A DNA stretch of 64,000 nucleotides, taken from the NCBI GenBank assembly GCA_963714015.1, contig OY970223.1:3296001-3360000 (forward strand). Reading direction: 5' to 3'. Both the position numbers and the translations under genes were made by a program. This stretch comes from Vulcanimicrobiota bacterium. GTDB lineage: Bacteria; Vulcanimicrobiota; Vulcanimicrobiia; Vulcanimicrobiales; Vulcanimicrobiaceae. The notes beneath the pieces were generated by a model that was not told the origin of the DNA, did not search any database, and saw only the letters and a list, made by a program, of their open reading frames with translations. This document shows positions 14,860-55,115 of the stretch, one piece after another. Position 1 is the stretch's first letter; each line of letters opens with the position of its first letter.

Positions 14860-15808
14860 CGCGAGAAAGCGCCCTTCAGCACGAATGCAAGATTCGCGGG
14901 ACGCTCCGCCAAACGGCGCATCAAATACGGAAACCAATAGTCGCCGAACGGAATGGCGAGCCGCACGCGATAGCCGCGTTCGACCAAATCGCGCGCTTGC
15001 GGTGCGGCGATTCCGTACAACATCTGAAACTCGAACCGCCCGCGCAGCGGAAGCGCGCGTTCCTTCGCAAACGCGCAAATCGCCGCAATAATCGCGGGGT
15101 CGTGCGTCGCCACGGCAACATAGCAGCCGCCGTCCAGCGCTTCTTGCACCATCCGCACGTAATTGGCGTCCACGTCGCTCTTGCGCGAATACGCGATGGC
15201 CGGCGGCTCCAAGTATGCGCCCTTCACGATGCGCAAATTCGGGCGCAAGGGCAGCAGCGCGCGCAAATCATCCAGCTTCGGAACAAATACGCCTGAAGCA
15301 CGCACCCGGCCGCGTCGGTCTGTTCGCGCAGCCGGCGGTAAATCGAGAGCGTCGCGTCGACATAGCGCGCCTGCTCCATGTCCAAGCGCATCGTATTTCC
15401 CAGCCGCTCGGCCGTCTGCGCCACTTCCAGCGCGTTCCGAAACGCTAGATCGCGCTCTATGTCCAGCCCCAAGTGCGTGAGTTTGAACGCAACGTTTGCG
15501 TCGATTCCGTCCCTGGCGAATGTTTCCAACAGATCGCAATAACGCCGGGCCGCCGCGGCGGCGCCCGCGGGATCGTCAACGCCTTCGCCTAGGATACCCG
15601 CTGCGACGGCAAACCCTCGAGCATTGGCCGCTTTCGCGGCGGTGAGAAAATCCTCGAGCGTATCTCCGGCGACAAAGCGCTTTGCGCCGAGGCGATCGCC
15701 GTAACGCTTCACCGCGCGTTGCACAATCGTGCTTTCGGCGGCGGCCAAAATCGCCGCGCGCAGCGGCTTGTCCAGAACGTTCAGTGGGAGCAGCGGGCGC
15801 AGTACCAC
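14856..15808 (-). CDS. Proline dehydrogenase (frameshift ~15280, likely sequencing error)
   Basis: RFVAGDTLE, KLTHLGL, RLDMEQ, VLQAYL in one frame; LRIVKGAYLEP, VATHD, FEFQMLYG, PYLMRRLAERPAN in the next. Confidence 0.85.
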
Positions 15809-16071: not shown

Positions 16072-16947
16072 CTACCGCATGCGGCGGTAGATCGGGAACA
16101 CCTCGTCGACTTTGCGGAACGCGCCTTCGTGAGGCGTAGCGTGCAGCGACTCGGCGGACGAGAGGCACAGAAAGCCGAACCGGCTCAGACTCTGCAGCAG
16201 CAGATTGTGGACCCGGTACTGAAGCGTCTTGTTGAACTGCGTCAGCACGCCGCGCGCAATGATGCATTGAAATTCGTTGAGCGACGCGTCGGTCGCCAGG
16301 CTGTGGCTCGAAAAAATGATCTGCCGCTGCACCGAAGGAGCGAACCGCGCTGCGCCGTCGCTGTATTCGCAGATGTCCGCTAAGGTCGAGCGTCCGCCGC
16401 TGAGCCGGTAGTCGTTGGCGAACTCTTCGAGCGCTCCCACGTGGAATAGACCGTTGCGAGCCTGCGCGAGCGCGATGTCGCTCAGATCCGTCGCATAGAT
16501 CATGCAGCGCTCCAGCATGCCCTCTTCCTGCAGAATTGCGGCCACGCTGAAGACGTCCTCGCCCGTCGCGCATCCCGGCACCCAGATGCGCACGAACGAG
16601 TACGTGCGCAAGAAGGGAATCACGCGCTCGCGGAATGCTTTGAAGTACTCGGGCGCTCGAAACAGACGATTCGCCGTATGCGACATTGCAAAGACGAACC
16701 GTCGCAACGCATCGCCGTCGTGCAAAATCCGCTCCTGCAGCCCGGAGATCGTTTCGACGCCTTCGGCGCGCATACGGTCGATCACGCGCCGTTTGAGCAG
16801 ACCCGGCGCGTAGTCGCGAAAGTCGTAGCCGCCCCAGCGCAGCAGCGCTTCGAGCAGCAACGAGAGTTCGACCGACGAACGTTCGTCACCGCGTTCGGGT
16901 GGAGAAACCGCCGGGGCCGGCGCTTCGCCGATTATCGATTCAACCAT
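16072..16947 (-). CDS. cheR: CheR-family protein-glutamate O-methyltransferase
   Basis: [40 protein letters not shown]. Confidence 0.88.
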
Positions 16948-19900
16948 ACACGCAACAGCGAGATTAAATGGTCCGTATCGACGGGTTTGCTGATGTATTC
17001 GGAAGCGCCCGCCGCGATACAGCCTTCGCGATCGCCCTTCATGGCCTTGGCCGTGAGCGCGATGATGGGCAAATCGCGGAATGCCGGATTGGCGCGGATG
17101 CGGCGAATCGTCTCGTAGCCGTCCATTTCCGGCATCATGATGTCCATGAGAACCAGGTCGATCTCCGGGTCGCTCTCCAGGCGGTCGATCCCGTCCTTGC
17201 CGCTTTCGGCCGAAACCACGCGCAGGTGATGGTTCTCCAGGGCAGCGGAAAGGGCAAAGATGTTGCGCGAGTCGTCGTCGACGATCAGGACCTTGCGCCC
17301 GTCCAGCGACGCCGTCCCGAGTGGCGGGATTTCGGAAGCGCGCTTGGCCGCCGGCAGCCTCGATTCGACCTGGTGCAAGAAGAACCGGGTTTCGTCGAGC
17401 AAGCGTTCCGGCGACATCGCATCCTTGATGATGACCGCTTCGCTCAATTTGTTGATCTTCGCCTCCTCCGTGCGATCCAGTTCGCGGCCGGTGTAGACGA
17501 TGATCGGCGTGCGCGCGTGTTCGCGGTGCGACCGGATGCGCGAGATGAGTTCGTCTCCGGCGAGATCGGGCAAGCCCAAATCCACGACGATACAATCGAA
17601 CTTGCCGCCGTCGAGTGCCTCGAGCGCTTCGGCGGCGCTGCGAACGGCGGTAATCGCCACCTCACCGCTGCCGATGAGGCCGACCATCGCATTGAGTTGC
17701 GTAAGATCGTCTTCGATGACGAGCACGCTCTTGGTGCGAGGCTCGGCGAACCCGAGCAAATTGTCGAACGTCTGCGTGAGCGTCTCTTCCGTGACGGGCT
17801 TGCGCAGATGCGCTATGGCGCCCGCGTCCAATGCGCGCTGCCACTGTTCCTCGCCCGAGATGACGTGGATCGGAATATTGCCGGTATTCGGATCTTCTTT
17901 CAATTCGGCGAGCAGACTCCAGCCGTCGGTATCCGGCAAGCCGATATCGAGCGTAATGGCATCGGGCAAGTGTTTGCGAGCCAGATCGATGCCTTCCGCG
18001 CCGCTCCTGGCGACGATGCCTTTGAATCCGCGGTCGCGCGCCAGTCCCAGGAGAATGCGCGCGAAGATCGGATCGTCTTCGATGATCAAAAGGACGCGAT
18101 CGGTACTCTCGATGCCTTGCCGGTCGTCGCGCACGACTTCGTAGCCCGCGGGCATCGAAACTTCGCGCGTGAGTGCCGGGCGGCTCGCCCGGGCCTTCAA
18201 GATGTCGGCCGCAGCCGACGACCGCACTATCGAAGACGGCGCGTTGCGTTCAAGCGGATGGAATAACGTGAACGTGCTGCCCTCGCCGAGCGTCGACTCG
18301 ACGCCGATCTCGCCGCCGAGCAGTCCCGCAATTTCGCGGCTGATTGCCAGACCAAGGCCGGTGCCGCCGAATTTACGCGACGTTCCCATGTCCGCCTGTT
18401 GGAACGCTTCAAAGATGACGTTGAACTTGTCGGGCGGGATGCCGATACCGGTGTCCTGCACCGAGAACGCGATCGCCGGACCTTGTATCGACGACAAATG
18501 GTGCTCTCGCATCAACGAGACGTCAAGCGTTACGCATCCGTCGATCGTAAACTTGAACGCGTTCGAGAGCAGGTTCTTGAGGATCTGCTGCAGGCGGGTC
18601 GGGTCGGTAGCAAGGTTTTCCGGGACGTCGTCGTGGCGCCGAATCACGAACTCGAGGTTCTTGTCCTTCGCGATTTGATCGAACGTGCGGATAACGTCGT
18701 CCTCGATCGCGTCGAAGCTCACTTCTTGCAGATCGATGGACGTGGTCCCCGATTCGATCTTCGAAAGGTCCAGAATGTCATTGATCAGCGTCAGCAGGTC
18801 GCTTCCGGCAGCGCGAATCGTCTGCGCGAATTCCACCTGCTTGGACGACATGTTGCCTTCGGGATTATCGGCCAGCGACTTGGAGAGAATCAGCAGCGAG
18901 TTGAGCGGCGTGCGCAACTCGTGCGACATGTTGGCCAAGAACTGCGATTTGTATTTGGACGTAAGCGCCAGCTGCTCGGCCTTCTTCTCCAGTTCCTGAC
19001 GCGCTTCGTCGATCTCGCGCGTGCGGCGCTCGATCTCTTCGTTGCGTTCCTGCAGCAGGCGGGCTTTCTCTTCGAGCTCGTCGTTCGTCTGCTGCAGCTC
19101 CATCTGCTGGCTCTGCAGTTCCGACGTCAGCGACTGCGACTGCTTGAGCAGTTCTTCGGTGCGCATCGACGCGGCGATGGTGTTCAGAATGACGCCGATG
19201 GACTCGGTCAGCTGTTCGAAGAACTGAAGTTGGATCTCGCTGAAGCGATCGACCGAAGCCAGCTCGATCACGGCCTTGACGTCGCCCTCGAAGAGCACCG
19301 GCAGCACGATCAGCGAGAGCGGAGGCGTTTCTCCCAGTCCCGAGTTGATCGTCATGTAGTCGCCCGGCACTTCGGTCAGCAGCACGCGCTGCTTCTCCAG
19401 CAGCACCTGACCGACGAGTCCCTCGCCTTCGCGAATCGTGCGCTGGGCGAACTTCTTGCGGTTGAGCGCGTAGCTCGCCACCAGACGCAGCATCTCCTGA
19501 TTGCCGATGGGCTCGTTCAGATAGAAGGCGCCCGCGTGAGCATTCACCAGCGGCGCGATCTCCGACATGATCAACCGGCTGACCGTCCGGATGTCGCGCT
19601 GTCCTTGAAGCATGGCCGTGAAGCGCGCCAGATTCGTCTTCAGCCAGTCTTGTTCGGTGTTCTTTCGCGTCGTGTCGCGCAGGTTCTGAATCATCTCGTT
19701 GACGTTGCGCGTCAGTTCCGCAACTTCACCGCGGGCTTCGACCTCGACCGCGCGCGAGAGGTCACCCTTGGTGACGGCGGTGGCGACTTCGCCGATTGCG
19801 CGAATCTGCGACGTAAGCTGCTCGGCCAGCTGGTTGACGGAATCCGTGAGATCTTTCCACAGACCGGCCGCGCCGGGAACCTGGGCTTGTCCGCCGAGTT

Positions 19901-22694
19901 TGCCTTCGAATCCGACTTCGCGTGCAACGGTCGTTACCTGGTCGGCAAACGTCGCCAGCGTGTCGATCATGAAATTGATCGTGTCGGCGAGCTGCGCGAT
20001 TTCGCCCTTCGCATCGACCGTCAGTTTGCGCTTCAGGTCGCCGTTGGCGACGCTGGTGACGACCTGCGCGATGCCGCGAACCTGGTTCGTGAGGTTTGCG
20101 GCCATGAAGTTCACGTTGTCCGTAAGGTCTTTCCACGTGCCCGACACGCCCGGCACCTGTGCCTGGCCGCCGAGTTTACCTTCGGAACCCACTTCGCGCG
20201 CGACGCGGGTGACTTCCGATGCGAAGCCGTTCAGCTGATCGACCATCGTGTTGATGGTGTCTTTCAACTCGAGAATCTCGCCGCGAACGTCGACGGTGAT
20301 CTTCTTCGAAAGATCGCCGAGGGCGACCGCCGTGGTAACCTTCGCGATGTTGCGGACCTGCGAGGTCAGGTTCGAGGCCATGGTGTTAACGGAGTCGGTG
20401 AGGTCTTTCCACGTTCCGCCGACGCCGCGCACGAATGCCTGACCGCCCAGACGCCCTTCGGAACCGACTTCGCGCGCCACGCGCGTGACCTCGGATGCGA
20501 AGGCGTTCAGCTGGTCGACCATCGTGTTGATCGTGTTCTTGAGCTCGAGGATTTCGCCGCGAACGTCGACCGTGATCTTCTTGGAGAGATCCCCGTTTGC
20601 GACGGCGGTCGTGACGTCGGCAATGTTGCGGACCTGATTCGTCAGGTTCGACGCCATCGTGTTGACGGAGTCGGTCAGGTCGCGCCACGTGCCGGAGACG
20701 CCCGTAACCTCCGCCTGGCCGCCGAGTTTACCTTCGGAACCGACTTCGCGGGCGACGCGCGTGACCTCGCCGGCGAACGAGTTCAGCTGGTCGACCATCG
20801 TGTTGATCGTGTTCTTCAGCTCGAGGATTTCGCCGCGAACGTCGACGGTGATCTTCTTGGAGAGGTCGCCCTTGGCGACGGCGGTCGTCACTTCCGCGAT
20901 GTTGCGAACCTGCGAGGTCAGGTTCGAGGCCATGAAGTTCACTGATTCGGTGAGGTCGCGCCACGTGCCCGAGACGCCGGCCACCTGCGCCTGACCGCCG
21001 AGTCTTCCTTCCGAGCCGACTTCGCGCGCGACGCGCGTAACTTCACCGGCGAACGAGTTGAGCTGGTCGACCATCGTGTTGATCGTGTTTTTCGACTCCA
21101 AGATTTCGCCGCGAACGTCGACGGTGATCTTGCGCGAGAGATCGCCCTTTGCGACGGCAGTCGTAACGTCGGCGATGTTACGCACCTGAGAGGTCAGGTT
21201 CGAGGCCATGGTGTTGACCGAGTCGGTCAAGTCTTTCCACGTGCCCGAAACGCCGGCGACCTCTGCTTGACCGCCCAGTTTACCTTCGGATCCGACTTCG
21301 CGCGCGACACGCGTCACCTCGCCGGCGAACGAGTTGAGCTGATCGACCATGGTATTGATCGTGTTCTTCAACTCGAGGATCTCGCCGCGCACGTTGACGG
21401 TGATCTTCTTCGAGAGGTCGCCCTTTGCAACGGCGGTGGTGACGTCTGCGATGTTGCGAACCTGCGAGGTCAGGTTCGAGGCCATGAAGTTCACCGACTC
21501 GGTGAGGTCTTTCCACGTACCGGAGACGCCGGTGACCTGCGCTTGTCCGCCCAAGATGCCTTCCGAACCCACTTCGCGCGCGACGCGCGTGACTTCGCCG
21601 GCGAACGAGTTGAGCTGGTCGACCATCGTGTTGATCGTGTTTTTGAGTTCGAGAATCTCGCCTTTGACGTCGACGGTGATCTTCTTGGAGAGGTCGCCCT
21701 TCGCAACGGCCGTCGTGACGTCCGCGATGTTGCGAACCTGCGAGGTCAGGTTCGACGCCATGAAGTTCACCGACTCGGTGAGGTCTTTCCACGTGCCGGC
21801 AACGCCTTGCACCTCGGCTTGACCGCCCAGCTTACCTTCGGATCCGACTTCGCGAGCAACGCGCGTAACTTCCGATGCGAAAGCGTTCAGCTGATCGACC
21901 ATCGTGTTGATGGTGTTCTTCAGCTCGAGAATCTCGCCGCGCGCTTCGACGGTGATCTTGCGTGAGAGATCGCCTTTTGCGACCGCGGTCGTGACGTCCG
22001 CAACGTTGCGAACTTGGTTCGTCAGGTTGCCGGCCATCGTGTTGACGGAGTCCGTCAGCTCTTTCCACATGCCCGCGACGCCTTTGACCTGCGCCTGGCC
22101 GCCGAGTTTGCCTTCGGATCCGACTTCGCGAGCGACGCGCGTAACTTCCGATGCGAAGGCGTTCAGCTGATCCACCATCGTGTTGATGACGCGCGCCGAT
22201 CGCAGGAAGTCGCCGCGAATCGGACGCCCGTCGATCTCCAGCACGGTGCGCTGCGAGAGGTCGCCTTGCGCAACCGCACCGATGACGCGGTTCGTTTCCG
22301 CCATAGGCGCGGCGACCGATTCGATCAGCTCGTTGAAGACGTCGATGTGCTCCTGCCATCCTCCGGACGCGCCCTCGAGTACGGCGCGGTTCGAAAGGCG
22401 CCCGTCGCGCGCGATCGTGCGGCTGACGCGACGCACCTCGTTGAGCATCCGCGTCTTCATCTCGAGGCAATCGTTGAAAGCGGCGGCTATTTCGGCCTCG
22501 ATGCCGTCTCCCGACACCGAAAGGCGTACGCCGAACTCGCCGCGTCGGAAGGCGTGCAGCGCTTGGAGGAGCCGTCGTTCTTGCGCGGTGCCCTCGTGCT
22601 GCCTGGAATGGGAGCCGCCGTTTGCGGAGCCGTTCCCGCCCGAAATCGAATACTTATTAGCGGAACGCTTACGCGTTGCCGTTGCTGAAGGCAT
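16932..22694 (-). CDS. Poly-HAMP-GAF hybrid histidine kinase with three receiver domains
   Basis: Nine ~92-aa [17 protein letters not shown] repeats, [28 protein letters not shown], three REC domains. Confidence 0.93.
19700..22270 (-). repeat. Intragenic ~276-bp tandem repeats encoding the poly-HAMP array
   Basis: Recurring gaccatcgtgttgat... and ttccacgtgcc... units at ~276-bp period; nine units counted in the protein. Confidence 0.9.
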
Positions 22695-22806
22695 AAAACA
22701 AGACTCCCTGCAGGCAGTTACCGAATAATCATATCCAAATCGCACAAGCGCCAAACTATGGCTCGCCAGGTTTAGCAAGCTGGCTCCAAGGGGGAGAACG
22801 TAGTAA

Positions 22807-24343
22807 ATGCCCACCGGTGTCTCTGCAAAACCGGATGCCCTTGATTTGCTGGCCGAAGCTAATGCCCGGCTGGCGTCGTCGTTCGATTTGTCAGTAACCT
22901 TACCGCAAGTCGCGGATCTCTGCGTTTCGAAATTCGCGGATTATTGCGCCGTTTACGCGACGCACGGCGACGGCGGCACCTTCGCGTTCGAGGCCTCGCG
23001 CGAAGAGGGCTTTCACGTCGAGATTCAAGACGCCGAGAATCTTCGCGACGTCCTGACGGCATTCGGGTTCGAAACCATTGTCGTCACGCCGCTTGCCGGC
23101 CGCCAGGACACGGCGGGAACCTTCGTCGTGGCGTCCCGGCATCGGTCCGCGTTCAACGGTCAGACGCAGAAACTCGCGCGCGTTCTCGCCCTGCAGATTT
23201 CCAATGCGCTCGACCAGTCGATGCTGTTCGAACGAACCTACCGCGTGGCCGACCGCCTGCAGCGAGCGTTGCTGCCGGATACCTTCCCGCGCGTCCCCGG
23301 CGCGATATTCCATGCGGCCTACCGCCCGGCAAGCGACGAGGCGGAGGTCGGCGGCGATTGGTACGACGCCTTCGCGCTGCCCGACGGGCGCGTAGCCATC
23401 TCCATGGGCGACGTAGCCGGGCATGGCTTGGAAGCCGCGACCGTAATGGGCGAAATCCGCCAAGCGATGCGCACGACGGCCCTCGGTGAAAGCTCGCCCT
23501 CGGCGCTGCTCGAACATATCAATTCCGTGATCAATTTGCGTAAAGGCATCGGCATGGTCACGGCAATCTTTGCGTACTACGAGCCCAAGCGCCGCGAATT
23601 GACGTACGCGGTCGCCGGACACCCGCCGCCGATTCTGACCATCGACGGCGGCGGCTTCAACGGCTTTCTGCCGGGCGGCGGCGTTCCGCTGGGCGTCGAA
23701 TCGCAAGTCCGCGCGCGAGATTGCACGATCGCGCTTGCCGCCGCGCAGCTGCGTGATCTTCTATACGGACGGAATGACCGAGTACTCACGCGACGTTTTG
23801 GCGGGTGAAGAACGCCTGCTGCAAGCCTGCGCGCGCGCCTTTCACGCGGACCCGGAGAATCCGGCAATCGCACTTCAGGAGCGCGTTTTCGATGCAACGA
23901 TCAACCGTGACGACGCCGCAACGCTCACGCTCTCTTGCGAAGACGGCAGCATCCCCGCCGGCATGACCTTCTCGGCCGTGCCGCTCGCAGCGCCCATCGT
24001 GCGATCGATGCTGCACCGGTTCTGCGACGAGAACGGGCTTTCGAGCGGGCAGCGCTTTTCGATCGTCACGGCGGTCGGCGAAGCCGTGGCAAACGCGGTG
24101 GAGCACGCGTACCGGGGCGAAGAACCGGGACTCTTACGTTTGCGCGTTTCCTGCGAGGGCGACGCGATCGCGATCGACGTCGAGGACTACGGCCGCTGGA
24201 GACCGTTCCAACGAAGGGACGAACGCGGACGCGGACTCGTGCTGATGCACGAACTGATGGACAGCGTGCGGATTACGTCCGAGCAGACGCGCACCGTGAT
24301 CTCGCTCTTACTCAAGCGCTCCGCAGAGCGCTTTACGATTTGA
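22807..24343 (+). CDS. GAF-SpoIIE/PP2C phosphatase fused to RsbW-like ATPase (frameshift ~23740)
   Basis: VGGDWYD, GDVAGHG, AGHPPP, then [32 protein letters not shown]. Confidence 0.87.
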
Positions 24344-32513: not shown

Positions 32514-33467
32514 TTAGTACGCGGGGCCGGGCGCCAGCGCTAAGCCGGGTGCCGCGCCGCCCTGCTCGGCAGTCGTCGACTCCACGGCTCCGGTGCTGGG
32601 ATTGAGCGCGATGATCTGCGCCGTGCCTGTGTCGGTAAGCCACAGATGCTTCCAACCCGCATCGAAGCGGATGAACGTCGCCGTATTGAATCCCGTTGCT
32701 AGTTGTTTGCAATTCTTCGTGCCGGTGCACTTGAAGACGCCGTTCGCCTGATCGACGTAGTACAGATTATCCGATCCGTCCACGGCCAGACCACCCGCCG
32801 CATCGTCTTTCGGCGTCGTTACCAGCACCTTGGCGTTTCCGGCGCAATTGAGAAACTCGACGACGTCCGCATTGAAATTTTTGAGGTCGTCGACCATCCA
32901 ATAACAATTGCCTTGGCTGTCGGTCGCGACGCCGAACCCCGCGCCTTGTCCGCCGCTCGGGACATAATGCAGCGTGCGTGACGGCGTTTTTGCGCCGTTC
33001 AAAAACACTTTCACATTCGCCGGTCCGTTGTTTGCGCCGAATTCGTTCGAGACGGCGACCAGTTTGTGCGCGGTGTTCACGGTCACGTCGATCGGCATCG
33101 CGCCCGTGTCCGCAAGGGTGCCCTTCGGACCCACGGGTCCATTGGCGGTCGAGCTGTACGTGACGGCTTCGTCCGCACTCACCAGCGCCTCGTACCACCT
33201 TCCCGCCGTGGTTGCGAATCCGCCGAGCGGTCTGCCCGGAGGCGTCAACGTGCTCTTAAAGGTCAGTGCGGTGCCGCTGACCGTGTACGTCTCGCAGTTC
33301 CCCGTTGATGCCGCGCACGTATAAAGCCAGCTCCCAATACCGGCCGATTCATGCATTGCCGCCATCGGCAGCAGCGGCGACGGTCCCGGTGCGGACGGTC
33401 CGCCGGAACACGCGCTCACCCACGCCGCCGCAATCATCACCGCGATACGCCAAATGATACTCTTCAC
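32514..33467 (-). CDS. Secreted lipoprotein, probable beta-propeller
   Basis: Lipobox-like VSAC; repeated GxAxDxxGN blades; GGAG RBS. Confidence 0.65.
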   Translation of the reverse strand: MKSIIWRIAVMIAAAWVSACSGGPSAPGPSPLLPMAAMHESAGIGSWLYTCAASTGNCETYTVSGTALTFKSTLTPPGRPLGGFATTAGRWYEALVSADEAVTYSSTANGPVGPKGTLADTGAMPIDVTVNTAHKLVAVSNEFGANNGPANVKVFLNGAKTPSRTLHYVPSGGQGAGFGVATDSQGNCYWMVDDLKNFNADVVEFLNCAGNAKVLVTTPKDDAAGGLAVDGSDNLYYVDQANGVFKCTGTKNCKQLATGFNTATFIRFDAGWKHLWLTDTGTAQIIALNPSTGAVESTTAEQGGAAPGLALAPGPAY

Positions 33468-33530
33468 GAAAAACGCTCCTCCCGAGATTGCTCTTGGGAA
33501 GAGCGTAGCGGTTTTTCGGCACCCGCCGCA

Positions 33531-33549
33531 GTGGGGGAAACCCTACTCG
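33531..33549 (-). promoter_or_regulatory. 19-bp box (copy 2) upstream of the secreted lipoprotein gene
   Basis: GTGGGGGAAACCCTACTCG; on the minus strand followed 23 nt later by TACGCT, then RBS and start at 33467. Confidence 0.55.
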
Positions 33550-35362
33550 GTCGCGGCCGGCGCGCTCAAGATGACGATCGCGCTGCGCGAGGCGTCGCTC
33601 CAGACGGCCTGTCCGACCAGCGGATCGGTCAGGTGCGAAAATGCCGCTTGTACCTCCTCGCGGGTGCACGCTTGAACGGAACCGGCCGCGCGCAATGCCG
33701 CATCGACCAGCAGCATCGCCGCGTCAAGGGTTAGCAGCGGCGCATTGGCCGGACCGCCTTGCTGCGTCGCGGTGACCTGCGCCTTCCAGCCTTCTTGCCG
33801 AACCAGGTGCGCGACGACCGCGATCCGTTTGCGCACGCCGTGCGTGCGTTCCCAGAGCAGATCGCTCAGCAGGTCGCAGGCAAAGCCCGGCTTGAGCAGT
33901 TGCCGGATTTCGAGCGGCGTCGCGCCCAGCGAGAGCAGCGTGCGCAAATCGGACACCGTGAGCGCCGTGACGCCGTGCGTGTGCAGTTCGGTAACGAGCT
34001 CTTCTTCCTCCGGAAACTCCGGGCCGATGATCGTGTTGTACTGCGCCTTGTACGCGGCAGCGTATTTGGAGGCCTCGACGCAATCGGGCTGCGTCACGAC
34101 GCCTTTGGCCGTTTTACATTCCAGCATGACGCGGTAGCCCAGCACGCCGACTGCGCGTCGGCGTAGCCGTCCGGTGCGAGGTACCCGCCGACGTGCGTTG
34201 CGCCAAAGCCCAAATGCGCAAACGCATCGCAGACCGCGATTTCGAACGCGGCCGGATCGGCGCCGGTCGAAGTAGCCTCTAGACGATCGATGAGCGCTTG
34301 CGTGGTTGCGCCGATCGCCGGCCGCACTTCAGGTTCGAGGTCCGGCCAGTCGTCGGGCGGCTGATTAATTCGGAACGTTCGATCCTGATTCTGCACGATC
34401 AGCGGTTTGCGACCGTGACCGATGGCGCGCGCGATGTACTCGATGAGCGCCGTATACATGTACTTTTTCACCATGTTCGGCTGCACGAGGCCGCGCTTGA
34501 GCGCTTCTTCAAGAATCTGCTGGGCGCTGCGCGCTTTGCCGTCTTCCAGGATGTCGAAGGCGGCCGTGATGGCGCTGCCGCGCGGCTGCGCCAGCATCAG
34601 GGTCGGCGCAGCGTTGATCTGCGCGAACTTTTGCGGCGGAATGGCCGCCACGACGTCACCGAAGACGTCACCGTGGGTCTTCCAGCGCTGCACGAACGCA
34701 TCGGCTTTGAGAGCGCCGTTCAGCGCGTCGAGTTCGTCCCAGCGGAACGGCGTTGCGACGGGGAATCCGTCAGCGCCGCGCAGGCTGTAAGGAAGAACGC
34801 TGAAATGCCAAGGCGCGTTGCTCGAGACGTGAAGATGGACGCGCTTGACGTCGTGCGTGTTGTACTCGGTCGTGAAGAGGTCGGGTCGGCGCGCCACCGC
34901 GTCGTTACAGAACGCGTGCAGCCAGGTGCGAACGTCCTGCGCCGCCGGCGCGTCGGCGAACGGAATCCAAAGTGCGATGCCGTCTTTGCCGTCGAAGAGC
35001 GGCGCCGCTTGCAGTTCGTGCTCAGCGAGCATATCACGCAAGGTTGCGGCCGCGAGGTTCCGACGGGCGGCGTCAGGCGAGCGCTCCAGCAGGATGCGCG
35101 CGAAGCGCAAGCGATCGACCTCATTCGGCACCGGCGCCCAGCCGTGAAACTCGACCGCGAACATGCGATGGCACAGCCAGAGCAGCTTGTTGGTGGACAT
35201 CGGCACATGCGTGCGATGCCAGTGCGGTGCCTGATCAAAACCAGCCGGAAAATTCGCGAAACAAATCGGCTCGTCCGCAAAGTGCTTTGCCATGGTTTCC
35301 GCGACGAGATAGTAATGGGAAAGAACGCGCGTTTCTAACGCGTCATTTAAGAGCAGCGCCAT
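33543..35362 (-). CDS. Inactive LigD-polymerase (AEP)-like domain + HARE-type HTH + Mrr-like PD-(D/E)xK endonuclease fusion (1-nt frameshift ~34150)
   Basis: AVEFHGW, VLPYSLRGADGFPVATPFRWDEL (LigD Pol); AAFDILEDGKARSAQQILEEALKRGL (HTH); FEIAVCDAFAHLGF...APDGYADA|GVLGYRVMLECKT (REase). Confidence 0.7.
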
Positions 35363-35383
35363 AGCCGCCTTAAATTGGCCGCG

Positions 35384-35445
35384 GGGTCCGTCGAGGGCCT
35401 TTAAGGGAGTGTCAGGGTCCCTCGAGGGCCTTTAAGTGAGTGCAA
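35384..35445. repeat. Two tandem 31-bp repeats
   Basis: GGGTCCGTCGAGGGCCTTTAAGGGAGTGTCA / GGGTCCCTCGAGGGCCTTTAAGTGAGTGCAA (27/31 identical). Confidence 0.85.
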
Positions 35446-35772
35446 AGCCCTCGTTAAGACGAAGCGGGCCCCGAGGAGAATCTATCCGTACCTCTTAGCA
35501 GGCGCTATCGCGCATAGGCAACCCCACTTTATCGCGGTTTTACGCCGGCTTCGCTTCTGATTGATGCTCGTAACCGGGCCCGCAGGGGTTGCGCTTTGCT
35601 GCATTTTGGAGCCCCCGATTGCGCGCTTTTGCGTCATCGGCGTCCGCAATAGACGGAACCAACAGTCGATGGTAACGCGGGCCTTAACGCAAATGCCCCT
35701 TGTCCCGATGAGGGCTTCCAACTTGGAATTTCAGGAAATCGTCACCGTTCTTGTCCTTGTGACGACGGGATA

Positions 35773-35867
35773 GGAGTTAAGGCCTTTTAAAACGAGGCCC
35801 CCCTCCTGGGCGCCTCGCGGCGTCGCGGCTAAGTCAATTCGATGGACTTAAGGCCTTCGAAAACGAG
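35773..35867. repeat. Two 24-bp direct repeats
   Basis: GGAGTTAAGGCCTTTTAAAACGAG (35773-35796) / GGACTTAAGGCCTTCGAAAACGAG (35844-35867), 21/24 identical. Confidence 0.75.
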
Positions 35868-35874
35868 CTTCCGC

Positions 35875-36828
35875 CTAAGTCGGGTCAGAGACCGTTGCTA
35901 ATTTTGGACCGATATAGCCGATCAATATTTTGCCGTTAACCCGCTCGTTCCATATGTAATATCGCCAGGCCTGAGGTGTGATTCGGCCGTGAAGCGAAAA
36001 CGTACGTTGTACCCCATCAGGACAACTAAATGTGCGCTCTGCCGCGTAGCGCTGCATAGTTTGATCGCTTTCGCCAGATACATTCTCTCCCAACGTCAAT
36101 TTTGTTAACTGATTGCTAACCAACGTCGGCGCCACATCACTTAGCGCTGTAAGGTGCTTTATCATTTGAAAGAGAATAGGGTCGTTTTTGCTGAGCGCAT
36201 TCAAATTGTCCTTTGCAGACTCGCAAAATGTTAAACCAGGAAAAAGGCCTGCGCGTTGCTCCCAAACATCGCCCCCACAAGTGATACCATGCCTAAGTAT
36301 CCTTGCCGGCTCATTACAGTGGCGTGCCGCATGCTCCACGTTGCTGGCATGCAAAACGCGCTCATCGCGTTCCAGAATCCGGTCACCGTCTAGTACAGTA
36401 CTGCACGAATGACGAGTTCGTGAGTATCCCATGGATGCTCCGCACTCATGCTGACAGCAACTCCTTCGAATAAGAAGGCGAAACCAAGGCCCTTGCATGG
36501 GTTATCCGCAATGGAGAACTCACGAATTAACGTCTGCTCCTTCAGCGCGACCTCCTCATCGGCTATATACGGTGCCGCAGTAGCGACCGTAAGAAATGCG
36601 CGTCTAGTATCCACTTCAACGCCCCTATCGTTGACCCACTTAAGTATCGGATAGTCTGGCGCGATCTCCAACGTGGCTATCGTGTCTTGGGTACGCAAAC
36701 GGTTGTTGAAGCCATTTTTTATTAACCGCAATAATGTCAATGTAAATCGGCCCATCATAGCGCAAGCTGAACGTCGGTCTCGATAGGTCGCAATACCGTC
36801 ACCCGTTTAAGAAAATATCTAAGGGCAC
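35875..36828 (-). pseudogene. Menshen NsnC-like third gene (frameshifted)
   Basis: Starts GTG PLDIFLN; GLGFAFLFEGVAVSM; C-terminus SGESDQTMQRYAAERTFSCPDGVQRTFSLHGRI...ILIGYIGPKL; directly follows the DUF3696 ATPase. Confidence 0.55.
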
Positions 36829-36835
36829 GCGTACC

Positions 36836-37935
36836 CTACACTAACAGCTCTGTCAGGTTCTTTTCCCACTCGTCGAAGAATCCGTCCGGCCACTCGTTTA
36901 TGCGTCCGTTTTTATCCAACTTTGGAGAAACGATCGTCGATCCGGATGTGGGATCGCGCTGAAAATAGTGCAGTGCTATGTCCTCGGGTTGCAGCATTTC
37001 GCGGTGAACGGCCAGTCTCACACCGTTAAGTAAGTGGTCGCTATGCGTTTCTACTATAACCTGCACGCCGCCGAATGCTACTGGGGCGAGCAGCTCCCCC
37101 ATGATGGTTTGTCCTCGTGGGTGCAAGTGGGCCTCGGGGTTTTCAACTATAAACAGCGAGCCCGATATAGCGGCAAGGCTCGCGACTATCACGGGCAGCA
37201 CATACGTAAGTCCGAATCCAACGTTAGTGGCCCGGTAAGGGTTAGATAGGCCCGACGCTGATTCGAAGTGATACGCAAGCCCCACAAGGTCCATTGTGGC
37301 TTGTCGCGCCGTTGTAATACGCGTGCCGGGACAAAAGCTCGCCAAGCCATGCCTCGACTTGATCTTGTAAGCGCGGCGATGGCGCAGACTTTATGCAGTG
37401 TCGACTCGTTCCGTACCGGCTCATCCTTGAAAACATCAAGATAATGGATAGCGAACTCACCGCGTACCCCAACTCTTCGTTGTTGTCGAACGGCATAGTC
37501 AGCCATGACAGAATAAGGGCGCGGCCCCAAACGCTCCGCAGTCAAATAGGTAAACATATCATCAAACAAATTCGACGAATAGCCGTAGGAATTGGGGTCT
37601 CGAGCCAAAGGGCTTAAGACTTCCGCCTCGCGATCGTAATTAAAGGACCACGTAGCACCCCCCCCGCTAAATTGTAAATCGAAGGATATTATGTCATCGG
37701 TAGCGTTCTCGTACAAGGCATCCTTTGCGGAGCCAATTTCAGTCAGTTCTCCGTTTAACGCAAGGCCTATATCTGGCAGGTAACCAACAGAGCGCGACTG
37801 ACGCAGAAGTAGGAGGCTTTGCACAAGCGAAGACTTCCCCATCCCGTTAAGGCCTGAGAGAATCGTCAGTTTACTGAACGGGACTCGACAACGTTCAAAG
37901 CACTTAAAGTTGTGTATAGAAATACTATCCAGCAT
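36836..37935 (-). pseudogene. AAA/ABC ATPase with DUF3696 (Menshen NsnB-like), two frameshifts
   Basis: IHNFKCF, GLNGMGKSS, YLTAERLGPR, NVGFGLTYVLP, ENPEAHLHPRGQ, ETHSDHLLNG, WPDGFFDEWE. Confidence 0.8.
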
Positions 37936-39097
37936 CGAGCACCTTTCTAACTGCCTTCTCAACCTTCTCAAATCTGAAACGAATTCGGTCTGGATTACCG
38001 GTTGCGACTGAGATCGTTTCCTCAAATCGAGTGTTTCGTAGTAGTTCCTCGTATGCGCGCCGGCAATCGTTCTTCCGATTACGTAACAATTGCTGCCGTT
38101 CGATAGGCACTTTTGCTAGATTTACGGACCACGTTTCGAACAGCGCCTTATTAATGGGAGGGCGTGGCAGGCTTCTCTCGCTTGATTTTACGAAATGCAT
38201 TCGCCCCGAAAAGATCGTGTGCGAGAGACATTGTTGATACGAATGACCGCCGAATTTCTTCAATCTCGCTTTGAGGCAAGGTATTTAATTCGCTCATTGC
38301 AGTGCTTAGGAAACTATCGAAGTCGCGCGCTTTGTACGATTTGTATGACATTCGAAAGAACGCGACAAATCGCAAAACGCATTCCCTATCACCCATGCGA
38401 TCATCGCGAATACCGAAGTCCGTTGCGATCCCGAATTCTGGCGCTTTTGCCAATTCGCTAAGTATGTCGCTTGCCTGCCCTTGGTTAAGCGCGTGGCGAA
38501 TCTCTTGAGCGGACAACGGCAAGCCACCCGTATTAATGCGTTTGAACACGGTGTATTTAACAGGTGGAGGCGTACCCTGCTGAATTCGATAAGCTGTAGT
38601 TGTGTTTCGTTAATTCGTCTCTGGATATTCCTTGTGAGATCGTCGTAGCGCTTTCCATCTAAGTTCGTTAGAAACTCCATGTCTTTCAGTCGTAACGACC
38701 GGTCAATTACAAAGCGCTTCAGAGTAATCAGTCGCTGCAGCCCGTCTACGACAAGCCACTTATCGTCATCTGTCGCGTCAAAATAGAATGCTGGAAGCGG
38801 TATTCTAACCAATATTGACTCGATGAGGCGGCTTTGCGTTGTGTCATTCCAGATGCCACCCTTACGCTGAAAGCCAGGGTTGAGATCGATTTCGTTAAGG
38901 GCAATCCGTTGCAACACCAAATCGATCGTCGGCTGCGTTGTTTCCATCCGAACAAGGTTCGGGTCAAACGGCTCAGTTATCGGTGTATCCGCGGAGGTGT
39001 CGTCTTCCTCTATACCGGGCTCAATCTCGTTGATTGACGCTGTACGCCCGGTTAGATCAAACAGTTTGTCCTGCTTCACTCCCATTTGCTTCGCCAT
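37925..39097 (-). pseudogene. DUF262 (ParB-like) protein (Menshen NsnA-like), two frameshifts
   Basis: LNPGFQR, SRLIESIL, VVDGLQRL, FKRINTGGLPLSAQEIRHA, PINKALFETWS. Confidence 0.82.
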
Positions 39098-40852
39098 TTT
39101 CGACAATATCTTGAAGTTTCCGCTGGTTGATTGGGTGCGGACGTCGCCCCGCGCGAATCGCCTGGAGCGCTGCGCGCGACACGCTACTGCGCTCTTGTAG
39201 TGTTTGTAGCGGCATAGCCTTGAGCTTTGGCAGAATCTTCGTGACCCATGCATCGCGCAGATTGTCCGGGTACTCCGTGTAAATGCTGCTCGCGTCCGAG
39301 GTGCTTTGCTGCTCGACCTCTTCCAGGTGATTCGACTCCTTGCCAATGTACCGAACGCAATCAATTGCGACGTGGCGCCGTGCCAGAAGCCCAGTCGTCC
39401 TTTGAGTTGAGGGCTCGCCGTCTGGAGTCGCGCACTTGGATTCCGGATGATATTCGTACGACGTAAGAACGTCATTGTACGTCTTTAGGCCGGCAGCCTT
39501 ACTGTCGCGGGTCGGCAACGTTGATACGCGATAGCGCCGCGCAGAGTACTCATCAATCCACTGTAGTCGTAGCCACTTCATCGGATTCGACTCGTACGGA
39601 GCAATGAGGTGAAAGCGCTCGGGATCGACGCCTAGCGGATGCCCCAATTGCTGAACATGTGCGCTGAGGAGGAAATTGAACGGCTTGATTTGCTTCGCAT
39701 AGTCCTTGCACCGATTGAGCTTTTCAAATAGGCGCGCGACATGCGGGCTGCTCACGGTGATACGACTGACGGCTGGCACGTATGCAAACGTAGCAGGCGT
39801 TGCCTTGAGACCGAACGCCTTGCGAATGATGCGAAGCCATGCATCGGCAACCAATCGCGATCGTCGCCCTCCGGATCGGTAGGGTTGAGCAAATGTCCTA
39901 ATCCATGCTCGGACCAATGGTTCTTGCCATTATTGATACCGGCGCGCAAAAGACTGTGGAACGCCCTTTGCATCCCGAAGAAAGAGCACATAGCGCTTTG
40001 CCGATATCGCGTAACACCACAAGCTGTCGCTGTTTGCCGCTTTTCGGGTCGAAGTTATCGTCTTCGATCTCCAGAATGGAACCTCGCACGGCCTCGCGGT
40101 CGTACGGGTTGAGCCTCGCAAACAAGTCCACAATCTCTTGGACTTGCCCCCAGGAAAGCGCCCGGATTGCCTCCCGCCCGCCGCGCATGCGAAGGGGGCC
40201 GCCAGGACAGGCTACAGGGCCGCCGCCGCGCGTGGCCGCTATCGCCATGGAGTCGGTATCCTCCATTGCGTACGTGCCGCCCCGATCGGTGACAAGGCGC
40301 TCCAGGAGGGACAGGAACAGCCTTCCACCGCTCGTGACCAGCGATGCGAGAGGCGGAAAGCAATACTCGCCAGGCGCTTCGGGATGCGAGACCGCGCACG
40401 CATACGGGCTATCATCGATGCCGTAGCATTGCAGGCGCACTTTCTTATCGGATTCCTGGCGGTCCATTTGCGCAAAAATGCCATAGGCTGTCGCGCTACC
40501 GAACGTCTTGAGGGCTTTATCTAAGCGCTCCCGCTCGGCCGGCTCAATGTCCTTGCGCGACGCGAGACGCTTGCGTTCCTCGATCACCTTTCGGAAAAAA
40601 TCGTCCCTGCGGGGGTTGATCGGGACCCGCCCTCGGAATGCGATCGGCGTCAGTAAATCGACCTCGCCGATCGGTTTGATTCGAAACGCCTCCACGATCC
40701 GAGGGATCTTACCGGTCAGCAAAACCGAGGCGACGAGATCCGGCCACGCATACCAGAGTGCGTCTTCCTGGCGCGAGGCATACAGATAGTTCACACCGAT
40801 TTGCCACGCATTGCTCCCGTACTTTGCTCGCACGGGAAGAACGTCGCCATCC
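39057..40852 (-). pseudogene. Family-B DNA polymerase, casposon-like; N-terminus lost at IS3 junction, three frameshifts
   Basis: Motif B ALKTFGSATAYGIF, FPPLASLVTSGGRL, motif C YAMEDTDS, YAISAKRY, WSEHGLGHLLNP, YIGKESN, C-terminal HTH. Confidence 0.72.
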
Positions 40853-41606
40853 GATCGCAGCGGATTGCCGTTGGAGCACCGCGCTTGACGACGATGCGAT
40901 CCAGTATCCGTACGACGTCCGCAGGCTTTGAATCCAGGCGCGACCTCGATGGCGAGGCATTCGCGCGTGAAGACATCGACGATGTTGAGCAAGCGAAACT
41001 TTCGTCGTTGCTCGCCCTTGAGCGTGTCGTGCATAAAATCCATGCTCCATACTTGATTGGGTCCCGCTGGCGAAAGACGAATGCGCTGCGCCGCCGACCG
41101 CCGCCGGCGTTTCGGTCCTTTGGCCCGTAAATTCAGGCCTTCCAACGTGTAGAGGCGTGCGACGCGCTTGGCGTTGACCTTCCAACCTTCGCGTTGCAAG
41201 AGCACATGGATGCGCCGATAGCCGTACCGCACGCGCGCGGCGGCAATCGCTATTATTCGTCCGCGCAGCACGGTTCAACGCATTGCGCTTGGGTTTGTAC
41301 TGCGGTGATGCGCGATGAATCGTAGCGCCGCGCTTACGCGCCGCTGGCTCACGCCAAACTGTTCTTGCACTTCGCCGGCGAGCTCGCGCTGCTTGGCCGG
41401 CCTCAGAGTTTTTTTTAGAGCACGTCCTGCAACATCGCCTTGTCGAGCGAGAGATCGGCGACCAGGCGTTTGAGCCGCGTATTTTCATCGCGCAGTTCGT
41501 TCATCTCGCGAATCTCGCTCGTGCCGAACTGACCGTATTTTTTCTTCCAAAAGTGAATCGTGTTCTCGTGCACGCCAGCTTGGCGCGCGAGTGCTGCGCT
41601 ATCGGA
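40853..41606 (-). mobile_element. Internal fragment of the same IS3 element (no terminal IRs)
   Basis: Near-identical to 11680-12435 and to the 46812 copy. Confidence 0.88.
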
Positions 41607-44001: not shown

Positions 44002-45814
<1,813 letters not shown>

Positions 45815-46811: not shown

Positions 46812-47585
46812 TGGTGGGCTCCCCAAAAACTAGGCCAGCGGGACCACAAAACCGAGTCGGCTAATCGGCTCGCCGAAGGAGGTCCCCATGGCACGCAAAC
46901 GCCACTCGCCCGAATCGATCGCCGCCGTCTTACGTAAGGCCGAATCCGGCATTCCGATAGCGCAGCTCGCGCGCCAAGCCGGCGTGCACGAGAACACGAT
47001 TCACTTTTGGAAGAAAAAATACGGTCAGTTCGGCACGAGCGAGATTCGCGAGATGAACGAACTGCGCGATGAAAATACGCGGCTCAAACGCCTGGTCGCC
47101 GATCTCTCGCTCGACAAGGCGATGTTGCAGGACGTGCTCTAAAAAAAACTCTGAGGCCGGCCAAGCAGCGCGAGCTCGCCGGCGAAGTGCAAGAACAGTT
47201 TGGCGTGAGCCAGCGGCGCGTAAGCGCGGCGCTACGATTCAATCGCGCATCACTGCAGTACAAACCCAAGCGCAATGCGTTGAACCAGGTGCTGCGCGGA
47301 CGAATCAAAGCGATTGCCGCCGCGCGCGTGCGGTACGGCTATCGGCGCATCCATGTGCTCTTGCAACGCGAAGGTTGGAAGGTCAACGCCAAGCGCGTCG
47401 CACGCCTCTACACGTTGGAAGGCCTGAATTTACGGGCCAAAGGACCGAAACGCCGGCGGCGGTCGGCGGCGCAGCGCATTCGTCTTTCGCCAGCGGGACC
47501 CAATCAAGTATGGAGCATGGATTTTATGCACGACACGCTCAAGGGCGAGCAACGACGAAAGTTTCGCTTGTCAACATCGTCGATG
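46812..47585 (+). mobile_element. 3'-truncated copy of the IS3 element at 11347-12576
   Basis: Identical left IR TGGTGGGCTCCCCAAAAACTAGGCCAGCGGGACCAC; orfA 46888-47142; orfB breaks off after WSMDF...NIVD. Confidence 0.92.
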
Positions 47586-48100
47586 CGAGGACGTCTCTTC
47601 TCGGGAAAGATTGTTGGTCCAACGCCTTGTCGACCAACAGAAGCACAGTTGGAAGAACGGTCGGACGGAATAGCAAACATCACGAAAGTCTGCTGGCGTC
47701 GCTACCGTCAAGCGCAATGGAACAAGATCGACGTTTCTCACCGGAATCCTTGCGAACATCAAGAGCGACGTTTGGAAACGGCGTCGGCACTGGTGCTTCT
47801 TGTTACGTTTGGCCGCGACACACTCTGCCCATGGTCGCGAGCAACCCAGGCAGACCATCTGCATCGCTCGATGGGGCACGAGTTGCCGTGGTTCGATCGT
47901 GCCGTTGAACGCTCGGACACATGAAGCCGTAACCATTGCGCGGATGATCTTCGGTCGAGGGACGGTGGATTGTATGCTGCGCTTTGCATATTTTCTAGCT
48001 TACCGGCTTTACTTACCTAGTCCGGTTTTGCCTCCTATAGTTAGTTACGGAGATTCTTAGAAGCCTCTGCCTTACCCTGAGCCCACATATTCACGGAAAT

Positions 48101-55058: not shown

Positions 55059-55115
55059 CTGTCGCGCGTTATGATTGCCGGCCGGAGCACTGAAACCGAC
55101 CGATAGGAGTTGCGA

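Follow-up and report, generated by a model that had tools for sequence, protein, structure and literature searches.

A gene on the minus strand of a 64,000-nucleotide stretch of a Vulcanimicrobiota bacterium genome (contig OY970223.1, positions 3,296,001 to 3,360,000, assembly GCA_963714015.1; the whole stretch is called the window) is a frameshifted copy of a modular nuclease gene family of Eremiobacterota. The gene lies at 33543–35362, and its predicted product consists of a pseudo-polymerase domain derived from the polymerase domain of LigD (PolL), a linker, a putative effector that is a FokI/Mrr-type PD-(D/E)xK DNA nuclease, and a conserved C-terminal domain. In the proposed mechanism, PolL would no longer polymerise but would bind a ligand (a nucleotide, a nucleic-acid 3' end or a flipped base, possibly with a metal), and ligand-bound PolL would license or restrain the nuclease, either in cis, as part of one fused protein, or in trans, from a separate gene. 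As no methyltransferase partner was found, the host chromosome would have to be protected by some such control of the nuclease. A cytoplasmic thermolysin-type (M4) protease may serve as a third module in a minority of loci. We hold with moderate confidence that the family is a sensor-gated nuclease, with the pseudo-enzyme PolL as sensor or regulator and no methylase partner. Its role is most likely restriction-like defence or another function in genetic conflict; an anti-phage role specifically is held with less confidence than the gating, because a defence-island signal was absent.

The gene was found as two overlapping open reading frames (ORFs) in different frames of the minus strand, ORF A (35362–34094, 422 aa) and ORF B (34145–33543, 200 aa). 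When ORF A was searched against proteins, 315 of the 8000 scored candidates were relatives at E <= 0.001, and most of the 120 relatives listed were single proteins of about 600–620 aa spanning both ORFs, annotated in their sources as "hypothetical", "DNA primase", "LigD" or "restriction endonuclease". The intact relatives were single ORFs of 603–620 aa; the three closest (P0002, P0003, and P0004; 603–606 aa) shared 83–86% identity with the window's gene, which is broken by a −1 frameshift. At the frameshift site (34149–34150), the window's protein read ...APDGYADAQ, followed by two stray bases and then by GVLGYRVMLECK in the next frame, while the three relatives were uninterrupted (...APDGYADAQLGVLGYRVMLECK). 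The two bases stand where the relatives carry a three-base Leu codon; one base of this codon is missing, and the site is no homopolymer. Judged from this alignment, ORF A and ORF B are one gene. The alignment also placed the missing base where a preliminary description of this DNA had put it (near 34150), and the fusion proposed there is real: the intact relatives are single proteins, not consistently split genes, and keep the nuclease residues described below.

The PolL domain and the nuclease module

Conservation was counted in an alignment of 64 relatives, and residues were numbered as in P0002, whose numbering is identical to that of the window's protein up to residue 250. PolL (residues 1–245; 34628–35362, minus strand) was delimited by Pfam, a PDB profile search and residue mapping. 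Residues 56–234 matched the Pfam family PF21686 (LigD_Prim-Pol; E 3.4e-26), as did all 64 relatives. The profile of the 64 relatives matched the solved LigD polymerase chains 5dmu (1.2e-26), 2iru (4.1e-25), and 2fao (7.2e-21), with alignments spanning positions 12–240, nearly the whole polymerase domain.

Residues were mapped through the alignment with 2iru, whose chain numbering is shifted by +3 relative to that of Mycobacterium tuberculosis (Mtb) LigD, and the mapping was checked on Asp227, Ser172, His178, and Arg244. The roles of the Mtb residues were taken from the available part of a LigD review (PMC8656161). In motif I, the metal ligand Asp137 corresponded to Glu93 (55/64; codon 35084–35086), and the metal ligand Asp139 to position 95, where Pro (24), Ala (13), Arg (7), Asp (5), and other residues were found. 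In motif II, the nucleotide-binding residues Ser172 and His178 corresponded to Asp124 (54/64; 34991–34993) and Ala130 (61/64; 34973–34975). The metal ligand of motif III, Asp227, corresponded to His178 of the family (61/64; 34829–34831), and His176, two residues earlier, was invariant (34835–34837). Motif I had thus changed from DxD to E-x-(P/A/R/...), motif II from SGxxGxH to DGxxGxA, and motif III from Asp to His. Neither the metal-binding set of a functional LigD polymerase (DxD of motif I with Asp of motif III) nor its nucleotide-binding pair (Ser and His of motif II) was found in the family, and with the metal aspartates replaced PolL would be unable to use the canonical two-metal mechanism.

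Other contacts were kept or exchanged for similar residues. Arg244, which contacts the nucleotide phosphates, corresponded to Arg195 (63/64; 34778–34780), and Phe64, which stacks on the base, to an aromatic residue at position 48 (63/64; W48 in the window, 35219–35221). The two 2'-OH contacts, His111 and Thr236, corresponded to His or Tyr (57/64) and to Phe or Tyr (60/64), respectively. The 5'-phosphate pocket, through which the LigD polymerase domain (LigD POL) binds the 5'-phosphate at breaks and which is formed by Asn13, Lys16, and Lys26 according to the same part of that review, was lost: the Lys26 position held Gln, Met, Glu, Leu, Ala, or others but Lys in 0/64, and the Asn13/Lys16 segment was short and unconserved, with a median of 19 residues before the conserved Tyr. 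A segment of about 23 residues after Phe64, present in 5dmu, 2iru, 2fao, and the genome's own LigD POL, was absent from PolL. The NCBIfam equivalog model TIGR02778 (ligD_pol) scored 61–69 bits against a cut-off of 214.7.

By these residues, PolL is a pseudo-enzyme that has lost the end-anchoring pocket and kept two nucleotide contacts (the Arg244 and Phe64 equivalents). The surviving residues favour a nucleotide, a 3' end or a flipped base over a 5'-phosphorylated end as its probable ligand. In the nuclease-fused clade, a conserved cluster of Glu, His-x-His, and Asp occupied the old active site. The mean pairwise identity among the 64 relatives was 0.49 for PolL, 0.56 for the linker, 0.64 for the nuclease, and 0.53 for the C-terminal domain. 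The ratio of nonsynonymous to synonymous substitution rates (dN/dS) was 0.04–0.17 in 9 of 10 domain-by-pair comparisons, about 0.1 for PolL, and 0.34 in one 40-codon piece. By these measures every domain is under purifying selection, and PolL is not decaying.

The linker (residues 246–362; 34277–34627, minus strand) contained a conserved block resembling a winged helix-turn-helix (HTH) and probably binds DNA. Pfam searches with two linker sequences at E up to 10 gave no family, PF05066 (HARE-HTH) matched 0/64 relatives at E <= 0.01, and hhalign of the linker with one true HARE-HTH protein gave a probability of 0.2. A PF05066 scan of 41 genomes matched just two unrelated genes and none of the PolL-nuclease family; the sole hint of a HARE-HTH was an Atlas feature match at 0.83.

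The PD-(D/E)xK nuclease of the FokI/Mrr type (34032–34276, minus strand) is the part interrupted by the frameshift. Its motifs were FE (34241–34246), the Asp of PDG (34169–34171), and ECK (34113–34121), and F374, E375, D399, E416, and K418 were invariant (64/64). Mrr_cat matched 46 of the 64 relatives at E <= 0.01, with P0002 scoring 18.7 bits against a gathering cut-off of 21. The profile of the nuclease module aligned with the FokI cleavage domain (2fok_A, E 0.0034), placing PD on D450 and ExK on D467/K469. The nuclease therefore looks intact and, from its motifs, active. The C-terminal domain (about 160 aa; 33546–34031, minus strand) was conserved, with invariant G494, W505, H509, K513, and Q530; it matched no Pfam family, and Atlas gave unnamed clusters only.

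The preliminary description had read this protein as a LigD Pol scaffold of about 245 aa with all three AEP catalytic motifs altered, followed by a HARE-type HTH and an intact-looking nuclease (FE...PDG...ECK). The scaffold and the nuclease residues held throughout the 64 relatives, and the altered motifs in most of them. The HARE-type HTH found no confirmation in Pfam or hhalign, and the designation of the first domain as an end-binding module does not fit the loss of the 5'-phosphate pocket.

Layouts and distribution of the family

A search of the genome contig set found 136 stretches encoding a relative. Nearly all of the best 80 carried an Eremiobacterota or Vulcanimicrobiota label, and Dormibacterota, Acidiferrales, Rhodospirillales, and Actinomycetes each appeared on a single record. 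Layouts were counted in these best 80 of 136 stretches; the search was seeded with the fused form, so that fusions are over-represented, and genes in the relatives were called by an ORF heuristic based on length and GC content at third codon positions (GC3). The linker, nuclease and C-terminal domain together are referred to as the nuclease module.

PolL and the nuclease module were fused or adjacent on the same strand in 65/80 loci. In 10 distinct loci (L071, the same as L094; L076, the same as L100; L080; L093; L095–L099; and L101), PolL and nuclease were divergent genes a few tens of bases apart with overlapping promoter regions. Separate genes on one strand stood in either order, and in L104 the nuclease preceded PolL. 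The split PolLs carried the same altered motifs as fused PolL and, in a tree of 52 PolL domains, formed one clade (support 100/99) nested among the fused forms. This suggests a single fission event behind the divergent forms; the LigD outgroup branch was very long and the root is unsure. In L056 (12841–14758), a degraded second tandem copy, with PolL and nuclease in separate ORFs, lay about 1 kb downstream of an intact one.

Other partners of the two modules were also found. In P0127 and P0165, an M4 peptidase with intact HExxH and downstream Glu was fused in the place of PolL, and P0129 had an N-terminal domain of another, unassigned kind there. An M4-nuclease fusion was followed by a separate PolL gene in L103 (680–3804); the order was M4, PolL, and nuclease in L109 (2525–5349), with a TGA within the M4 part, and nuclease, PolL, and M4 in L111 (2564–5519). 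In L110 (2875–8001), the nuclease gene was convergent with an M4 gene, had no PolL, and adjoined a large RHS-repeat gene, which encodes DUF6531 plus RHS and is of the polymorphic-toxin type. The M4 peptidase of these loci was thermolysin-type, cytoplasmic-looking and N-terminally shortened. The M4 link is rare, as 0/80 of the best loci carried M4.

Stand-alone "orphan" PolL genes lay just downstream of a GNAT (Acetyltransf_3) gene in all five examined (L112:3857–5288, L113:3239–4830, L114:4915–7340, L116:4779–6202, and L117:2966–4360), with one ORF in between in L114. Motifs I and II of GNAT-linked PolL were altered as in the rest of the family. Cysteine dioxygenase or DUF3465 genes recurred near the GNAT-PolL pairs. 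The recurrence of PolL with the nuclease module in fused, split and permuted layouts points to a functional link between them, which is new.

The nuclease-bearing P0127, used as query, matched 128 of the phylum's 401 genomes at E <= 1e-40 (matching genomes G263 and G361 are flagged as unpublished). By taxonomic family, these were 117 of 296 plus the window's genome in its own family, 4/5 in a second and 6/30 in a third, with none in 18 others. In the window's family, 89 of 207 genomes by hand count (87/199 when unpublished genomes were left out) had a best match at E <= 1e-70, the weaker matches in that table being canonical LigD POL. Presence was mixed within genera (33/80 in genus g4, for example), and several genomes held 2–5 matches, which were old divergent paralogs. 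The window's genome itself has an intact 614-aa paralog (L084:1312–3156), which shares 40% identity with P0002, the intact relative nearest to the window's gene. The family is thus accessory and patchy, occurring in about a third of the searched genomes in three Eremiobacterota families.

Genomic context and alternative explanations

Clustering of 1276 ORFs from the 80 loci and the window gave no recurrent neighbour, the top cluster occurring at most 3 times per position. DNA similarity to the closest loci (81% and 80%), one of them from the same genus, ended at the ORF ends. A comparison of synteny and empty sites within the genus gave no result, the flanks being too diverged or rearranged; genome G210 proved to be where L002 and L024 come from. 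Neither conserved flanks nor terminal repeats were seen as signatures of a mobile element.

The neighbours were surveyed as 150 proteins, two genes either side of 38 loci. Pfam assigned them to ordinary metabolic and housekeeping genes, with toxin-antitoxin genes within two genes in 7/38 loci and one ISL3 transposase. Ku, ligase, and DNA methyltransferase were absent from the 150 neighbours; L043 had one generic Methyltransf_11 protein. PADLOC (E <= 1e-10) found a clear PD-Lambda-2 pair in L021, seven matches to generic domains, and a weak NsnC-like match (1e-10) of a small gene in L018. One clear and one weak case of known defence genes in 38 loci do not bear out the defence-island context that had been proposed, and known defence genes are not over-represented beside the family.

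In the window, the gene does adjoin a Menshen-like operon, as first described. PADLOC identified NsnC, NsnB (in two pieces), and NsnA at 35875–39475, all incomplete: NsnC lacked roughly the first 140 profile positions, NsnB was split into overlapping ORFs (36836–37345 and 37189–38025), and the NsnA match was limited to profile positions 22–164 of 385. The family gene itself had no PADLOC match, so it is neither NsnA, NsnB nor NsnC. The GC content of the Menshen stretch, which continues with insertion sequence (IS) fragments to about 49 kb, was 48–56%, against 62–66% for the gene and the host side. The adjacency is therefore best read as an island inserted beside the gene; with no other family locus carrying Menshen, an association of the two did not stand. 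Between about 35.4 and 49 kb, the window has the look of an island rich in mobile elements, with a broken rve integrase (39901–41271), an IS21 IstA/IstB pair (44005–45814), and an HTH_21 fragment (47187–47921); an rve_3 fragment lies apart at 11398–11787.

Several points weigh against a sensor-gated nuclease with a role in defence or conflict. The proposed ligand binding and gating were deduced from residue conservation. The copy in the window is itself broken and perhaps without function. Searches of 2.9 million viral contigs and of phage records yielded no member, and those of plasmids just one weak match, to the nuclease core; with this and the lack of enrichment beside known defence genes, the usual guilt-by-association argument is missing. 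The nuclease module had no PolL within 400 nt in 12/80 loci, some of them at contig edges, so PolL is not obligatory. The His-x-His signature is not universal either: the motif III Asp is retained in GNAT-linked PolL (RVRLDASTNA), and M4-linked PolL carries His-x-Ser, so that by sequence the signature belongs to the nuclease-fused clade and not to every PolL.

The family could instead be an accessory of double-strand-break repair, with PolL having affinity for Ku, LigD or broken DNA and bringing the nuclease for end trimming in non-homologous end joining (NHEJ). We consider this unlikely. PolL does descend from the LigD polymerase and keeps the nucleotide and primer-end contacts of Arg244 and Phe64, and the genome encodes Ku, ligase and a true LigD POL in two NHEJ loci. 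One (C1:818497–820991) encodes ligase, a frameshifted LigD POL and Ku, and the other (C1:3268136–3269575, 28 kb before the start of the window) encodes a full-length LigD POL (264 bits) and then a ligase domain; Ku and ATP-ligase genes thus lie elsewhere in the genome and, as had been noted before, not in the window. On the other side, PolL lacks a conserved 5'-phosphate pocket and the segment of about 23 aa found in all three solved LigD POL chains, and 0/150 neighbours were Ku or ligase. The family is patchily distributed within genera, whereas nearly every one of these genomes has a canonical LigD POL match, and the old paralogs in genomes with 2–5 matches and the M4 protease and GNAT partners are not what an NHEJ factor would lead one to expect. 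If the family were an NHEJ end-processing factor after all, end-trimming nucleases would have a new counterpart in bacteria.

A selfish or addiction module is likewise improbable. Here the nuclease would be a toxin and PolL its antidote or regulator in cis or trans, maintained by post-segregational killing or by free-standing spread of the homing type. The gene is solitary and found in unrelated contexts even in the same genus, with DNA similarity that stops at its ends; toxin-antitoxin genes lie nearby in some loci, as counted above; the divergent two-gene forms share very short control regions; and broken copies are common (L032, L034, L052, L065, and the second one in L056). These points are countered by within-genome paralogs that are only about 40% identical, which speaks against recent copying, by the missing terminal repeats and conserved flanks, by the near absence from viral contigs, phages and plasmids, and by long-term purifying selection on all four domains.

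The reading of the preliminary description, a sensor of 5'-phosphorylated ends that targets the nuclease to linear invading DNA and acts with Menshen in a defence island, is very unlikely: LigD POL binds the 5'-phosphate at breaks (PMC8656161, in the part available), end-sensing nucleases were proposed for Shedu in the accessible text of 10.1101/2023.08.10.552793, and Menshen genes adjoin the gene, but PolL has lost the pocket, the Menshen genes are fragments within a distinct low-GC, IS-rich island, and no other family locus had Menshen beyond the one weak NsnC-type match in L018.

We prefer the sensor-gated nuclease and tentatively, as a clearly more doubtful proposal, extend it as follows. 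PolL may be a new pseudo-enzyme sensor whose active site has been refitted with Glu, His, and His (plus Asp) but still has the Arg and the aromatic residue that hold the nucleotide. On detecting a nucleotide, a modified base or a 3' end, it would switch on the FokI-like nuclease. Together with the optional M4 protease, this would be an immune or conflict system of two or three modules, not recognised before and limited to Eremiobacterota, and the PolL scaffold would have been re-used with GNAT. If PolL does gate the nuclease, an AEP/LigD polymerase domain would have been turned into a non-catalytic regulatory module for a nuclease, of which no earlier example was found in the literature searched, and a new sensor class would be added to the scheme of one nuclease core with many sensors. 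To our knowledge, the phylum has no cultured model organisms and hardly any work has been done on its conflict systems; the family is common in it, with about one in three of the searched genomes carrying a member. Its natural fused, split and permuted forms are a ready series for testing how a pseudo-enzyme gates an effector, and a FokI-like cleavage module with a ligand-controlled switch could interest enzyme engineers.

Known systems, the frameshift and other features of the window

Compared with LigD polymerase (AEP superfamily; PF21686; 2iru, 2fao, and 5dmu), PolL is homologous over the whole domain and keeps the arginine of PYSLRG (Mtb Arg244), the Phe64-type aromatic residue and the motif III Asn. 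It differs by Asp137 to Glu, loss of Asp139, Asp227 to His, Ser172 to Asp, and His178 to Ala, by the loss of Lys26 and the deletion of about 23 aa, by a score of 61 bits against 214.7 for ligD_pol, and by never standing beside Ku or ligase among the surveyed neighbours.

The nuclease shares with FokI and Mrr-type enzymes (Type IIS and Type IV) a core aligning on D450, D467, and K469 and the Mrr_cat matches (46/64). A DNA-binding-like module likewise precedes the cleavage domain, and the gene is solitary, as in Type IV enzymes. In contrast to these enzymes, the family has no cognate methyltransferase in the 38 loci and an extra C-terminal domain of about 160 aa, and a pseudo-polymerase is its N-terminal partner, in place of a domain known to read sequence or DNA modification. 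Type II/IIS restriction-modification was rejected, there being no DNA methyltransferase among the 150 neighbours.

Shedu (SduA), as described in the accessible text of 10.1101/2023.08.10.552793, also has a PD-(D/E)xK effector, swappable N-terminal domains and single-gene units; the N-termini that alternate in the present family are PolL, the M4 protease, an unassigned domain, or none. The family differs in that its nuclease is not DUF4263, with no Shedu match in PADLOC or Pfam, and in its restriction to one phylum and lack of enrichment in defence islands. Membership of Shedu was rejected, as the DUF4263 core was absent by both Pfam and PADLOC.

Fusions of HARE-HTH with a restriction endonuclease (REase), described by the Aravind laboratory and proposed in the available part of PMC10853773 to read modified DNA, share an HTH-like block directly before the REase domain. 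They differ from the family in the HARE-HTH itself, for which Pfam and hhalign gave the family no support, and have no PolL partner as far as that part goes. Antiviral systems in which a protease is paired with a DNA nuclease were described in the accessible part of PMC12799240; the proteases treated there are of the trypsin or caspase type, while that of the family is M4. DRT7 has an AEP-superfamily domain inside a defence protein; according to the available text (10.64898/2026.02.16.706125), its primase is catalytically required, while PolL lacks the catalytic residues.

PADLOC 2.0 had no model for any form of the family protein, and a full-text literature search, covering main texts and not supplements, gave no description of a fusion of LigD-POL-like and Mrr/FokI-like domains. 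The family was not mentioned in the accessible parts of a survey of Antarctic repair enzymes (PMC10140301), an AEP survey (PMC5862659), the Menshen analysis (PMC12065111), and the Dnd/HARE-HTH analysis (PMC10853773). The earlier remark that the architecture corresponds to no named system agrees with these searches.

Upstream of the gene, two 28-nt direct repeats were found at 35384–35442, 22–80 nt upstream of the start codon. Each contains a palindrome centred on CTCGAG (CCCTCGAGGG), and the pair is unique in the genome. The repeats, which were absent upstream of 15 relatives, are possibly an operator or promoter element, and their membership of the unit is uncertain. The 5' flank 35363–35874, with and without which the preliminary description had proposed to test the gene, was not conserved in relatives. 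A pair of 24-nt direct repeats (35773–35867) also lies in this 512-bp spacer between the gene and the NsnC remnant. An Rfam scan of 33000–36600 found nothing, and a promoter and terminator scan gave nothing above the shuffled background.

The public contigs on the region covered 33949–34140 and 34185–34369, and none bridged the frameshift; one read run contained 0.15 of the sampled sequence words. Downstream of the frameshift, dN/dS between the window and two intact orthologs was 0.10–0.11 over 158–160 codons, against 0.104 between two intact copies. The frameshift is therefore very recent or an artefact, and it may be an assembly error. The genome assembly is a single contig of 3.56 Mb with 89.6% completeness. 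Split or truncated genes were scattered elsewhere: FAD_binding_3 (55110–56093) and Rng_hyd_C (56101–56577) lie in different frames, a truncated SpoIIE (22807–23805) overlaps the next ORF (region 22807–24340), proline dehydrogenase is truncated (15227–15808), the Menshen operon is in fragments, and outside the window the canonical LigD POL beside Ku is in two frames (C1:819539–820331). These genes and the completeness suggest assembly indel errors or a pseudogene-rich genome. The window also encodes a 1960-aa hybrid histidine kinase (16935–22814) with about eight HAMP repeats, GAF, HisKA/HATPase, and three receiver domains.

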